Position numbers and translations under genes: made by a program
Source: Escherichia coli
GTDB lineage: Bacteria > Pseudomonadota > Gammaproteobacteria > Enterobacterales > Enterobacteriaceae
Reading direction: 5' to 3' (one strand)
Assembly: GCF_024502345.1 (NCBI RefSeq)
Contig: NZ_JALDNN010000001.1
Length of the DNA: 64,000 nt
Notes under the pieces: model-generated
The model's database searches: none
What the model was told of the DNA's origin: nothing
What the model saw: the letters and a program-made list of their open reading frames with translations, nothing else
Part shown: piece by piece, positions 5,104-24,047 of the stretch
How positions within the stretch are numbered: position 1 is the first letter of the stretch
Layout of the letters: each line of letters opens with the position of its first letter

Positions 5104-6160
5104 GGCTTTGTTGAATAAATCGAACTTTTGCTGAGTTGAAGGATCAGATCACGTATCTTCCCGACAACGCAGACCGTTCCGTGGCAAAGCAAAAGTTCAA
5201 AATCACCAACTGGCCCACCTACAATAAAGCCCTCATCAACCGTGGCTCCATAACTTTCTGGCTGGATGATGAAGCTATTCAGGCCTGGTATGAGTCAGCA
5301 ACACCTTCTTCACGAGGCAGACCTCAGCGCTATTCTGACCTTGCCATCACGACTGTGCTGGTCATTAAACGCGTATTCAGGCTGACCCTGCGCGCTGCGC
5401 AGGGCTTTATTGATTCCATTTTTTCTCTGATGAACGTTCCGCTACGCTGCCCGGATTACAGCTGTGTCAGCAGGCGGGCAAAGTCGGTTAATGTCAGTTT
5501 CAAAACGCCCACCCGGGGTGAAATCGCACACCTGGTAATTGATTCCACCGGGCTGAAGGTCTTCGGTGAAGGCGAGTGGAAAGTCAAAAAGCATGGCCAG
5601 GAACGCCGCCGTATCTGGCGTAAGCTGCATCTCGCCGTTGACAGTAAAACACATGAAATCATCTGCGCTGACCTGTCGCTGAACAACGTTACGGACTCAG
5701 AGGCCTTCCCCGGGTTAATCCGGCAAACCCACCGGAAAATCAGGTCAGCCGCCGCCGATGGCGCTTACGATACCCGGCTATGTCACGATGAACTGCGGCG
5801 TAAGAAAATCAGCGCGCTTATCCCTCCCCGAAAAGGTGCGGGTTACTGGCCCGGTGAATATGCAGACCGTAACCGTGCAGTGGCTAATCAGCGAATGACC
5901 GGGAGTAATGCGCGGTGGAAATGGACAACAGATTACAACCGTCGCTCGATAGCGGAAACGGCGATGTACCGGGTAAAACAGCTGTTCGGGGGTTCACTGA
6001 CACTGCGTGACTACGATGGTCAGGTTGCAGAGGCTATGGCCCTGGTACGAGCGCTGAACAAAATGACGAAAGCAGGTATGCCTGAAAGCGTGCGTATTGC
6101 CTGAAAACACAACCCGCTACGGGGGAGACTTACCCGAAATCTGATTTATTCAACAAAGCC
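5104..6160 (+). mobile_element. IS903-group insertion sequence (IS5 family), copy 1, 1057 bp, no target-site duplication
   Basis: Perfect 18-bp terminal inverted repeats GGCTTTGTTGAATAAATC (5104-5121 and 6143-6160); length 1057 bp; transposase ORF. Flanking 9-mers differ (ACCTTAAGG vs ATCGTGCAC). Confidence 0.93.
5181..6104 (+). CDS. IS903-type transposase (307 aa from GTG at 5181; the track ORF starts at TTG 5136)
   Basis: Translation VAKQKFKITNWPTYNKALINRGSITFWLDDEAIQAWYESATPSSRGRPQRYSDL... matches the IS903/IS102 transposase family from memory. Confidence 0.9.
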   Translation: MAKQKFKITNWPTYNKALINRGSITFWLDDEAIQAWYESATPSSRGRPQRYSDLAITTVLVIKRVFRLTLRAAQGFIDSIFSLMNVPLRCPDYSCVSRRAKSVNVSFKTPTRGEIAHLVIDSTGLKVFGEGEWKVKKHGQERRRIWRKLHLAVDSKTHEIICADLSLNNVTDSEAFPGLIRQTHRKIRSAAADGAYDTRLCHDELRRKKISALIPPRKGAGYWPGEYADRNRAVANQRMTGSNARWKWTTDYNRRSIAETAMYRVKQLFGGSLTLRDYDGQVAEAMALVRALNKMTKAGMPESVRIA

Positions 6161-6208
6161 ATCGTGCACACTACGCAGTCTCACAACTAACAAGAGGTTA
6201 TTATCCTG

Positions 6209-6613
6209 ATGGATCAGGTCGTTGTTTTTCAAAAGATGTTTGAGCAAGTGAGAAAAGAGCAAAACTTCTCCTGGTTTTATTCAGAATTAAAACATCACCG
6301 TATTGCACATTACATTTATTATCTGGCTACGGATAACATCAGAATTATTACTCACGATGACACGGTTTTGTTATTAAGAGGAACCAGGAACCTGTTAAAA
6401 GTTAGTACGACCAAGAACCCTGCTAAAATAAAAGAGGCCGCATTGCTTCATATTTGCGGAAAATCTACATTTCGGGAATACTGTTCAACACTGGCAGACG
6501 CGGGCGTTTTCCGTTGGGTTACTGATGTTAATCATAACAAACGCAGTTACTACGCCATTGATAATACGCTTTTATATATTGAAGATGTAGAAAATAATAA
6601 ACCATTAATCTAG
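6209..6613 (+). CDS. ycgX: DUF1398 family protein, YcgX-like
   Basis: 134-aa ORF immediately upstream of iraM, the K-12 position of ycgX. The protein sequence itself was not matched from memory. Confidence 0.6.
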   Translation: MDQVVVFQKMFEQVRKEQNFSWFYSELKHHRIAHYIYYLATDNIRIITHDDTVLLLRGTRNLLKVSTTKNPAKIKEAALLHICGKSTFREYCSTLADAGVFRWVTDVNHNKRSYYAIDNTLLYIEDVENNKPLI

Positions 6614-6828
6614 CTAAAGTTGGATGCTTAAGAAATGCTTCATAATTCAGTATGGCATTAGCATAATGGGAATAAAAGTACAGAGACTATCCCTATGGAT
6701 GATAAATACTGTCCTTTTATTGCTACCCATAAATAATCACCTGGCCAATACTATCAAATTGATATTTGAAATGTGATCACTTGACTTTCTATACGTTATT
6801 TCATAACGTTTAATATATTTATAAAAAC

Positions 6829-6851
6829 AACGGGCGTGCCATACGCCCGTT
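6829..6851. terminator. Hairpin aacgggcgt-gccat-acgcccgtt in the ycgX-iraM spacer; likely terminator
   Basis: Perfect 9-bp stem; the reverse strand is followed by a T-rich run. About 85% similar over roughly 50 bp to the hairpin at 7689-7711. Confidence 0.5.
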
Positions 6852-7308
6852 TCAATACTTAACGCACATGTGTTTTGGTTTAGTCATCATCCAGTTATAT
6901 GTATTTTAGCCAGGAACAGGTTAAACCTTTCCTATATAACTCAAAAATTGAAACCTTATTCTCATGTCATGCTTATATTCATTATTATCGTTATATAAAA
7001 AGGCAACCATAATGTTTAGCAAATTGGCACAAAGTAGCATAAAGGCTATGTTTTAATTACAGGATGGTCAGTCATTTGAATGTATAACATTATAGCTAAA
7101 CAAATCTAAAACGAAGTGAATAATTTATTGTTTTCACTAAATCTCATTTTGTTTAACATCCATTGAGATTCCTTGCTTTAAATTTTGTTTTATATAAGCA
7201 ATTGTTTTAATTAATTTATTTTTTGAAGGGGTAATATACTCATATGCAAAATAAAGAAATGAACATCCAAATGAACTATATTAAATACCGTGGGATAAGA
7301 CATAACAA

Positions 7309-7632
7309 ATGAAGTGGGTAGTAATTGACACGGTAATTCAACCTACATGCGGCATATCTTTTTCAGCCATATGGGGTGATATGAAAATGATTATCTGGTA
7401 TCAATCTACTATATTTCTTCCTCCTGGAAGTATATTTACACTGGTTAAGCCTGGTATTATCCTTAAGGATAAAGAATATCCTATAACTATTTATAACATT
7501 GCACCATTCAACAAGAATTTATGGAGTTTACTCAAAAGCAGTCAAGAGTGTCCTCCAGGAGAAAGCGAAATAACAAATAAATGTTTGCATAAGAGTTGTA
7601 TTATAAAAATATGCCCATATGGGCTCAAGTAA
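7309..7632 (+). CDS. iraM: Anti-adaptor protein IraM (stabilises RpoS against RssB)
   Basis: 107-aa [44 protein letters not shown]...; long AT-rich upstream region; adjacent to icd. Confidence 0.85.
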
Positions 7633-7688
7633 TGGGTTTTATATAAATATGCTCGATATGCTATTAATAATATCCACATAAATAAAAC

Positions 7689-7711
7689 AACGGGCGTGTT
7701 ATACGCCCGTT
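7689..7711. terminator. Bidirectional intrinsic terminator between convergent iraM and icd
   Basis: Stem aacgggcgt/acgcccgtt with loop gttat; on the reverse strand it is followed by GTTTTATTTAT, directly downstream of the icd stop. Confidence 0.7.
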
Positions 7712-7734
7712 TAAATATTTAACACATGTAGTGA

Positions 7735-8985
7735 TTACATATTTTTGATGATCGCATCACCAAACTCTGAACATTTCAGCAGTTTAGCGCCTTCCATCAG
7801 ACGTTCGAAGTCATAGGTTACGGTCTTCGCATTGATTGCGCCTTCCATACCTTTAACAATCAGGTCTGCGGCTTCGGTCCAACCCATGTGGCGTAACATC
7901 ATCTCAGCAGAGAGAATAATAGAACCTGGGTTAACTTTGTCCTGACCGGCATATTTCGGCGCAGTACCGTGGGTGGCTTCAAACAGGGCGCATTCGTCAC
8001 CGATGTTTGCACCAGGGGCGATACCGATACCGCCAACCTGCGCTGCCAGGGCGTCAGAAATGTAGTCACCGTTCAGGTTCATACAGGCGATAACATCATA
8101 TTCAGCCGGACGCAGCAGGATCTGTTGCAGGAATGCATCAGCAATCACGTCTTTAATGACGATCTCTTTGCCGGTATTCGGGTTTTTAACTTTCAGCCAC
8201 GGGCCGCCGTCGATCAGTTCACCGCCAAATTCTTCACGCGCCAGCTGGTAGCCCCAGTCTTTAAACGCGCCTTCGGTGAACTTCATGATGTTGCCTTTGT
8301 GCACCAGGGTCACAGAGTCACGATCGTTAGCAATTGCGTATTCGATCGCTGCACGAACCAGACGTTTGGTGCCTTCTTCAGAACACGGCTTAATACCGAT
8401 ACCGCAATGTTCCGGGAAGCGAATTTTCTTCACGCCCATCTCTTCACGCAGGAATTTAATCACTTTCTCGGCGTCGGCAGAGTCAGCTTTCCATTCGATA
8501 CCCGCATAAATGTCTTCCGAGTTTTCACGGAAGATAACCATATCGGTCAGTTCAGGGTGTTTAACCGGGCTTGGAGTGCCCTGATAGTAACGTACCGGAC
8601 GCAGGCAGATGTAGAGATCCAGTTCCTGGCGCAGGGCAACGTTCAGAGAGCGAATACCGCCACCAACCGGAGTGGTCAGCGGGCCTTTAATGGCAACGCG
8701 ATATTCACGAATCAGATCAAGGGTTTCAGCAGGCAGCCAGACATCCTGACCATAAACCTGTGTGGATTTTTCACCGGTGTAAATTTCCATCCAGGAGATT
8801 TTACGCTCGCCTTTATAGGCTTTCTCGACTGCAGCGTCGACCACTTTCAGCATGGCTGGGGTTACATCTACACCGATTCCATCACCTTCAATGTAAGGGA
8901 TAATCGGATTTTCAGGAACGTTGAGTTTGCCGTTTTGCAGGGTGATCTTCTTGCCTTGTGCCGGAACAACTACTTTACTTTCCAT
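7735..8985 (-). CDS. icd: Isocitrate dehydrogenase (NADP)
   Basis: 416-aa [41 protein letters not shown]...; no prophage is attached to its 3' end. Confidence 0.97.
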
Positions 8986-13582: not shown

Positions 13583-13599
13583 GGTTTATTTAATGTTTA
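13583..13599 (+). promoter_or_regulatory. PhoP box (autoregulated phoP promoter)
   Basis: GGTTTA-tttaa-TGTTTA direct repeat, matching the (T/G)GTTTA-N5-(T/G)GTTTA consensus, about 60 bp upstream of the phoP ATG. Confidence 0.8.
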
Positions 13600-13659
13600 C
13601 CCCCATAACCACATAATCGCGTTACACTATTTTAATAATTAAGACAGGGAGAAATAAAA

Positions 13660-22990: not shown

Positions 22991-24047
22991 GGCTTTGTTG
23001 AATAAATCGAACTTTTGCTGAGTTGAAGGATCAGATCACGTATCTTCCCGACAACGCAGACCGTTCCGTGGCAAAGCAAAAGTTCAAAATCACCAACTGG
23101 CCCACCTACAATAAAGCCCTCATCAACCGTGGCTCCATAACTTTCTGGCTGGATGATGAAGCTATTCAGGCCTGGTATGAGTCAGCAACACCTTCTTCAC
23201 GAGGCAGACCTCAGCGCTATTCTGACCTTGCCATCACGACTGTGCTGGTCATTAAACGCGTATTCAGGCTGACCCTGCGCGCTGCGCAGGGCTTTATTGA
23301 TTCCATTTTTTCTCTGATGAACGTTCCGCTACGCTGCCCGGATTACAGCTGTGTCAGCAGGCGGGCAAAGTCGGTTAATGTCAGTTTCAAAACGCCCACC
23401 CGGGGTGAAATCGCACACCTGGTAATTGATTCCACCGGGCTGAAGGTCTTCGGTGAAGGCGAGTGGAAAGTCAAAAAGCATGGCCAGGAACGCCGCCGTA
23501 TCTGGCGTAAGCTGCATCTCGCCGTTGACAGTAAAACACATGAAATCATCTGCGCTGACCTGTCGCTGAACAACGTTACGGACTCAGAGGCCTTCCCCGG
23601 GTTAATCCGGCAAACCCACCGGAAAATCAGGTCAGCCGCCGCCGATGGCGCTTACGATACCCGGCTATGTCACGATGAACTGCGGCGTAAGAAAATCAGC
23701 GCGCTTATCCCTCCCCGAAAAGGTGCGGGTTACTGGCCCGGTGAATATGCAGACCGTAACCGTGCAGTGGCTAATCAGCGAATGACCGGGAGTAATGCGC
23801 GGTGGAAATGGACAACAGATTACAACCGTCGCTCGATAGCGGAAACGGCGATGTACCGGGTAAAACAGCTGTTCGGGGGTTCACTGACACTGCGTGACTA
23901 CGATGGTCAGGTTGCAGAGGCTATGGCCCTGGTACGAGCGCTGAACAAAATGACGAAAGCAGGTATGCCTGAAAGCGTGCGTATTGCCTGAAAACACAAC
24001 CCGCTACGGGGGAGACTTACCCGAAATCTGATTTATTCAACAAAGCC
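22991..24047 (+). mobile_element. IS903-group insertion sequence, copy 2, 1057 bp, flanked by a 9-bp target-site duplication
   Basis: Same terminal repeats and encoded proteins as copy 1; direct orientation; perfect 9-bp duplication. Confidence 0.95.
23068..23991 (+). CDS. IS903-type transposase (307 aa from GTG; the track ORF starts at 23023)
   Basis: Identical to the transposase of copy 1. Confidence 0.9.
   Translation: MAKQKFKITNWPTYNKALINRGSITFWLDDEAIQAWYESATPSSRGRPQRYSDLAITTVLVIKRVFRLTLRAAQGFIDSIFSLMNVPLRCPDYSCVSRRAKSVNVSFKTPTRGEIAHLVIDSTGLKVFGEGEWKVKKHGQERRRIWRKLHLAVDSKTHEIICADLSLNNVTDSEAFPGLIRQTHRKIRSAAADGAYDTRLCHDELRRKKISALIPPRKGAGYWPGEYADRNRAVANQRMTGSNARWKWTTDYNRRSIAETAMYRVKQLFGGSLTLRDYDGQVAEAMALVRALNKMTKAGMPESVRIA

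Follow-up and report, generated by a model that had tools for sequence, protein, structure and literature searches.

The promoter of iraM, the gene for the anti-adaptor IraM, probably contains a PhoP box of normal spacing and degenerate sequence at 7150-7166 of the window, i.e. of the whole 64,000-nucleotide stretch of Escherichia coli DNA analyzed here. The hexamer TGTTTA at 7150 would be the distal half of that box, and a standard sigma-70 promoter of class II, activated by PhoP, is the most likely arrangement. A dimer of phospho-PhoP would bind the direct repeat TGTTTA-N5-CATTGA in place of a -35 element and would recruit RNA polymerase to the -10-like hexamer TAAATT, with transcription starting near 7191-7192. 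A box-like site in reverse orientation, located five helical turns upstream, could be a second, accessory PhoP site. The features to which the text refers are the following:

6209-6613, + strand: ycgX, first gene in the order of the locus
between ycgX and ymgK in the order of the locus: ymgL
7012-7056, + strand: ymgK, annotated small protein
7097-7113, - strand: box 2, PhoP-box-like CGTTTTAGATTTGTTTA, with 2 mismatches, 11.7-12.6 bits with a position weight matrix (PWM) and rank 5 in the window
7129-7134, + strand: hexamer TGTTTT, the first of two pointed out in an earlier note on this DNA, with 3 of 6 columns variable in a 12-sequence alignment
7136-7185, + strand: conserved promoter block holding box 1 and the putative -10, 86% identical to the divergent allele L025
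7150-7166, + strand: box 1, proposed PhoP box TGTTTA-ACATC-CATTGA, put forward from its 11-bp spacing, PWM score and conservation
7179-7184, + strand: putative -10 TAAATT, invariant, 12 nt downstream of box 1
7191-7192, + strand: predicted transcription start, placed from the position of the -10 plus 7 nt, as at mgrR
7244-7312, + strand: upstream ORF of 22 codons within the predicted 5' UTR, with a TGA stop that overlaps the ATG of iraM (ATGA)
7309-7632, + strand: iraM, the regulated gene, encoding the anti-adaptor IraM (ORF list, RefSeq annotation of near-identical loci, and Pfam PF11183)
7735-8985, - strand: icd, next gene after iraM in the order of the locus
13583-13599, + strand: reference PhoP box of the phoP promoter, with zero mismatches, a 12-nt gap and CATAAT at 13612-13617

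The window corresponds to an E. coli chromosome without the e14 prophage, and the 695-bp intergenic region between ycgX and iraM is present in 3980 of 5426 complete E. coli genomes, with 92-99.6% identity. A search of Rfam over 6000-8200 returned no RNA family. An ORF for an IS5-family (IS903-like) transposase lies at 5136-6104, about 100 bp upstream of ycgX, a place occupied directly by bluR in K-12; since the same 17-mer is present at 5225 and at 23112, a second IS5-family copy may lie near 23100. Two directly oriented copies of a GC-rich hairpin and its flank (AACGGGCGT...ACGCCCGTT) lie at 6824-6871 and at about 7685-7730 and bracket ymgK-iraM. One of them is the icd terminator region, and the downstream copy of L029, one of the aligned strains, is about 90% identical to 6824-6871 over 48 nt.

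That iraM is under the control of PhoP is already known. H-NS reportedly regulates the gene too, and its old name is ycgW. The statement of the earlier note that iraM is PhoP-activated agrees with PMC5740661, PMC5775216 (as ycgW) and PMC10948607. Induction in E. coli is about 20-fold and PhoQ-dependent (PMC5740661), reviews cite Bougdour 2008 for the dependence of iraM on PhoP/PhoQ (PMC10948607), and in a Shigella delta-phoPQ mutant a gene listed as ycgW, which could be iraM or its paralog iraL, was down to 0.09x (PMC5775216). Concerning the site itself, ycgW is absent from the list produced by the Shigella consensus scan, which admitted up to 2 mismatches (PMC5775216), neither ycgW nor iraM is listed in the supplements of Harari 2010, and a full-text literature search with the box sequence returned nothing relevant. 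The accessible papers, a set outside which primary papers such as Bougdour 2008 fall, give no PhoP site, PhoP binding or transcription start for iraM.

The consensus used was (T/G)GTTTA-N5-(T/G)GTTTA, to which PhoP boxes usually show no more than 2 mismatches. The distal half of box 1, TGTTTA at 7150-7155, matches it perfectly, and the proximal half, CATTGA at 7161-7166, matches it at 3 of 6 positions. As TGTTTA at 7150 pairs with CATTGA at 7161 over 11 bp, the site is normal in its spacing and degenerate in its proximal half; the arrangement of two direct hexamers separated by 5 nt was kept in all 12 sequences aligned. The mismatches to the consensus number 3 in the window and in K-12, 2 in some strains (with TATTGA) and 1 in allele L025 (with TGTTGA). 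The caution of the earlier note about a weak match was well placed. Elsewhere, PhoP boxes with three mismatches, those of crcA and lmiA, have been accepted as functional (PMC7667037).

The scan with a weight matrix that the earlier note had proposed was run with a PWM trained on 11-12 accepted PhoP boxes (Table 5 of PMC5775216 plus K-12 loci). Among the roughly 128,000 positions of the 64-kb window, box 1, with 11.6-14.7 bits, ranked 4th; it ranked 8th when the rstA site was left out of the training set and only 49th when all sites of the xxTTGA type were left out. The leave-one-out scores of the accepted sites spanned 9.2-22.5 bits, with a median of 13.6, a range within which box 1 falls. The top matches upstream of iraM were 6922-6938 (- strand), 7150-7166 (+ strand; TGTTTAACATCCATTGA) and 7097-7113 (- strand), with ranks 3-5 in the window, and no 17-mer starting at 7129 was among them. 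The earlier note had allowed that the authentic site might lie elsewhere in the AT-rich region; the best candidate overlaps the very interval that it had singled out. The region is AT-rich and T-rich, and box-like strings are common in it. A match of at least 11.5 bits occurred in 25% of shuffled sequences. Three such matches were observed in the intergenic region versus 0.28 expected (P for 3 or more = 0.0017 in shuffles), and a + strand match followed by TAnnnT 11-13 nt downstream was found in 1.5% of shuffles. A consensus scan limited to 2 mismatches missed box 1, which has 3, and gave upstream of iraM the sites 6922-6938 (-), 7097-7113 (-) and 7175-7191 (+), none of which contains the pair of hexamers of the earlier note. 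The last of these, GCTTTAAATTTTGTTTT, with 2 mismatches, was discarded on account of its second half, which varies (TATTTT in K-12, TCATT- in L025), and of its overlap with the -10. A GadE box at 7140-7160, with about 10 of 20 matches by eye, was discarded as well.

The position of box 1 relative to the putative core promoter is that expected from class II activation. The box is in direct orientation and lies over the -35 position, where the sequence (7156-7161) is ACATCC and shows no -35 match, and 12 nt separate it from the putative -10. That -10 is weak and its register ambiguous (TTTAAATT), and a simple sigma-70 scan did not call TAAATT at 7179-7184, as is expected for a promoter without a -35. 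A class II PhoP promoter devoid of a -35 has been described (PMC2908699). From the predicted start, the 5' UTR of iraM would be about 117 nt long.

The same layout is found in established members of the PhoP regulon. The phoP promoter, also within the window, resembles that of iraM in having a direct-repeat box with 11-bp spacing, in direct orientation and 12 nt before the -10. Its box, GGTTTATTTAATGTTTA at 13583-13599, has the canonical spacing that the earlier note ascribed to it and is a perfect consensus, whereas the proximal half of the iraM box matches only at 3 of 6 positions. In K-12 mgrB, the box is likewise followed by 12 nt and then by the -10 (TAGTTT).

The closest likeness was found with K-12 mgrR, a gene activated by PhoP/PhoQ (PMC7667037, citing Moon and Gottesman 2009), in which CGTTTA-ACATT-CATTGA is followed by 12 nt, by TACTGT and, after 6 nt more, by the annotated 5' end of the sRNA, which confirms the assignment of that -10. 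The iraM segment 7151-7168 (GTTTAACATCCATTGAGA) coincides with positions -40 to -23 of the mgrR promoter at 17 of 18 bases. The shared sequence, GTTTAACAT(T/C)CATTGAGA, includes the non-consensus bases of the proximal half, CATTGA, which is identical in both; in both promoters, too, the -10 follows after 12 nt and a -35 is absent. Since the flanks of the two promoters are unrelated, the likeness looks functional rather than the result of shared ancestry. The two differ in the distal half, which is CGTTTA in mgrR, and in what lies upstream: in mgrR, one more tandem half-site (AGTTTA) at a distance of 11 bp; in iraM, a reverse box at 53 bp. The mgrR promoter (L017, - strand, 367-340) thus carries three tandem half-sites with 11-bp spacing, AGTTTA, CGTTTA and CATTGA. 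When positions are counted from the annotated 5' end of the RNA, the standard -41 to -25 stretch is taken by the proximal pair and not by the distal one, whose match is better. From this geometry, the 17-mer formed by the proximal pair would be the one contacted by PhoP at mgrR.

A distal TGTTTA combined with a proximal half of the TTGA type, as in iraM, also occurs in the boxes of slyB, shf and hdeA (PMC5775216, Table 5) and in the K-12 candidate of rstA, all of which have 1-2 mismatches versus 3 in iraM. In EMSA, PhoP bound the promoter fragments of slyB, shf and hdeA that carry these boxes, and the site of shf was footprinted as well (PMC5775216). The similarity to rstA was given less weight because the register of its box relative to its -10 is uncertain. 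At the level of the circuit, iraM resembles Salmonella iraP, in which low Mg2+ leads through PhoP and an anti-adaptor to the stabilization of RpoS (PMC5740661 and PMC4045071, citing Tu et al. 2006), although the protein family and the promoter of iraP are unrelated to those of iraM, IraM being a member of the PmrD-fold family PF11183.

Conservation was studied in an alignment of 12 sequences, namely the window, ten further E. coli-type sequences and the divergent allele L025. In box 1, none of the 6 columns of TGTTTA (7150-7155) varied, versus 3 of the 5 columns of the spacer (ACATC, ATCTC, ATATC, GCCTC) and 2 of the 6 columns of the proximal half (CATTGA, TATTGA, TGTTGA), where the two substitutions, C to T and A to G, each go toward the consensus. 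The half-sites were thus conserved relative to the spacer and flanks, an observation of modest weight, as a similar pattern is seen in about 10% of all 17-mer windows. The 12-nt gap from box 1 to the -10 had a constant length in the 12 sequences. The non-coding alignment contained three invariant runs of at least 9 nt, and two of them are 7144-7155 and 7177-7185 (TTTAAATTT), that is, one ends with the distal half-site and the other covers the putative -10.

L025 (a Logan contig of ERR5173188, found also as H21-H30 among E. coli genomes) is a rare allele, present in 19 of 5426 complete genomes, with the gene order ycgX, an 84-aa gene of the YmgB/AriR family, iraM (its IraM 73% identical) and trkG. 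Over 6868-7280, its identity to the window is about 70%. When its segment 901-1530, which begins some 100 bp before the ymgB-like ATG and reaches into the start of iraM, was compared by blastn with the intergenic region of the window, 7136-7185 was the sole significant match (86%, E 1e-11), and the same block was the top 50-bp window of the alignment with L025, in which the mean identity was 70%. The L025 box, TGTTTAGCCTCTGTTGA, has 1 mismatch and scores 20.5 bits, far above anything else in that allele. There, the block with the proposed PhoP box precedes the ymgB-like gene, so that this gene and iraM may form an operon of two genes. Another stretch, 7019-7052 in ymgK, is 88% conserved versus the divergent allele, in spite of the ymgK frame not being preserved there. 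A sigma-70-like TTGGCA-17-TATGTT falls on the same stretch, which may be a second, PhoP-independent promoter feeding iraM. In strain 2018-166 (L024), an IS1-associated rearrangement replaces everything upstream of 7143. The junction lies 7 bp before box 1, with the loss of ycgX, ymgK, box 2 and the hexamer at 7129, while box 1, the proposed core promoter and iraM are intact.

Several other readings of the region were weighed against that of box 1. The earlier note had considered TGTTTT at 7129-7134 and TGTTTA at 7150-7155 as non-canonical PhoP half-sites, and both hexamers are indeed present on the + strand, with their starts 21 bp apart, a distance of two helical turns that would place them on the same face of the helix. 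Hexamers of the form KGTTTW are enriched on the + strand of the 695-bp intergenic region, with 8 present versus 1.9 expected; none of 2000 dinucleotide shuffles reached 8. A KGTTTW pair 9-35 bp apart was present in about 11% of shuffles and the two pairs observed had a P of about 0.01, so that the enrichment is real and the 21-bp pair alone is not significant. Against cooperation of the two hexamers, the one at 7129-7134 reads TGCTTT in K-12, the strain for which control by PhoP was demonstrated, and is TATTTT in L029 and TCATAT in L025, so it is not kept where PhoP regulation holds; it lies within the least conserved stretch, which separates two conserved blocks. Moreover, AATCTC, 11 bp downstream of 7129, is unlike a half-site, and the 17-mers starting at 7129 are missing from the top PWM matches. 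We know of no mode of PhoP binding with half-sites spaced 21 bp. Hence the hexamer at 7129-7134 is probably not functional and a non-canonical pair is extremely improbable, while TGTTTA at 7150 is very probably a half-site, only with a partner other than the one proposed for it.

Box 2 deserves more attention. Its centre lies 53 bp, or five helical turns, upstream of that of box 1, and none of its 12 half-site columns varied, versus 2 of its 5 spacer columns (n=12, binomial P 0.004); in L025, nothing but the spacer changes. Its conservation equals that of box 1, and it may serve PhoP as an accessory site, in which case it would be compatible with the explanation based on box 1. To regard it as the main PhoP site, acting from far upstream or through a divergent antisense promoter, would fit its 2 mismatches, its PWM score of about 12 bits, the -10-like TACATT located 12 nt downstream on the - strand and the frequency of reverse, far-upstream boxes among horizontally acquired PhoP targets, as in Salmonella (PMC2908699). 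Such a role is nevertheless unlikely, considering that box 2 is outside the single most conserved block, that no validated promoter matches it in the way mgrR matches box 1, that its centre would be near -87 from the predicted start, and that strain 2018-166 has lost it while retaining the iraM gene. A highly improbable location for PhoP action is a distal promoter upstream of ymgK, e.g. at 6922-6938 (- strand), with iraM expressed from a long ymgK-iraM transcript. The score of that site (13.7-14.9 bits, rank 3 in the window) speaks for it, as does the annotation of ymgK as a small protein, which implies transcripts covering it, and the co-induction of ymgK and iraM by AZT (96x and 39x, PMC11228462) suggests an additional upstream promoter. 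However, 6922-6938 scores 9 bits in K-12 (TATATAGGAATGATTTA), is variable among strains (3 of 12 half-site columns, n=12) and is absent from the top matches of L025, where a 19-bp insertion abuts it. It is also improbable that PhoP controls iraM indirectly, in which case 7136-7185 would combine a core promoter with a site for some other regulator, and its likeness to a PhoP box would be a coincidence of AT-rich DNA. In favor of indirect control are the frequency of matches in shuffled sequence given above, the reported regulation of iraM by H-NS and an inverted repeat around box 1, ATCTCA (7141-7146) and TGAGAT (7164-7169), which is imperfect in L025 (ATTTCA) and may be due to chance or be the site of another regulator. 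The 17 of 18 bases shared with the mgrR box at identical geometry, the approach of the proximal half to the PhoP consensus in other alleles and the low joint probability (about 1.5%) of a match with a correctly spaced -10 argue the other way.

Downstream of the proposed promoter, the 22-codon ORF at 7244-7312 corresponds in the alignment to the first part of the 84-aa YmgB-family gene that L025 carries intact, is open in 12 of 12 E. coli-type sequences with a varying peptide, and is unannotated in K-12 RefSeq. Its interpretation as the 5' stub of a ymgB/ariR-like gene is well supported by these sequence comparisons. A G-rich, Shine-Dalgarno-like run precedes its ATG by 12 nt, a rather long distance that makes its translation uncertain; this run, at 7229-7232, is G4 in the window and G8 in K-12 and goes from roughly G3 to G9 or G10 among strains. 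That the promoter of iraM once belonged to a ymgB/ariR-like gene, since deleted, and is now an orphan dependent on PhoP seems doubtful, if conceivable. As a matter of speculation, were the stub translated, the synthesis of IraM could depend on translational coupling, which would add a translational layer to control by Mg2+. It is equally speculative that the two PhoP-box-like sites 53 bp apart could jointly counter silencing by H-NS.

Concerning relatives of the gene, a scan of genome contigs for IraM homologs yielded only an Escherichia albertii paralog and one contaminant contig. The IraM/IraL-family paralogs of E. coli and E. albertii (L003, L005-L010), 50-69% identical, are lone + strand genes in lambdoid and Stx prophages, with lysis genes, antiterminator Q, and Shiga-toxin A and B subunits (RIP and SLT_beta domains) or LpxR as neighbors. 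The upstream regions of these prophage IraL-type genes were dropped as material for footprinting, as they are not homologous to that of iraM.

The understanding of PhoP or of the regulation of IraM is not changed by these results, as the proposed box is a routine site in a known member of the regulon. The replacement of an unusual arrangement of half-sites 21 bp apart by a box of ordinary spacing can be useful for annotation and for the design of promoter mutants. The cis-element now located is likely to be that through which low Mg2+, by way of PhoQ/PhoP, would switch on IraM and thereby stabilize RpoS.
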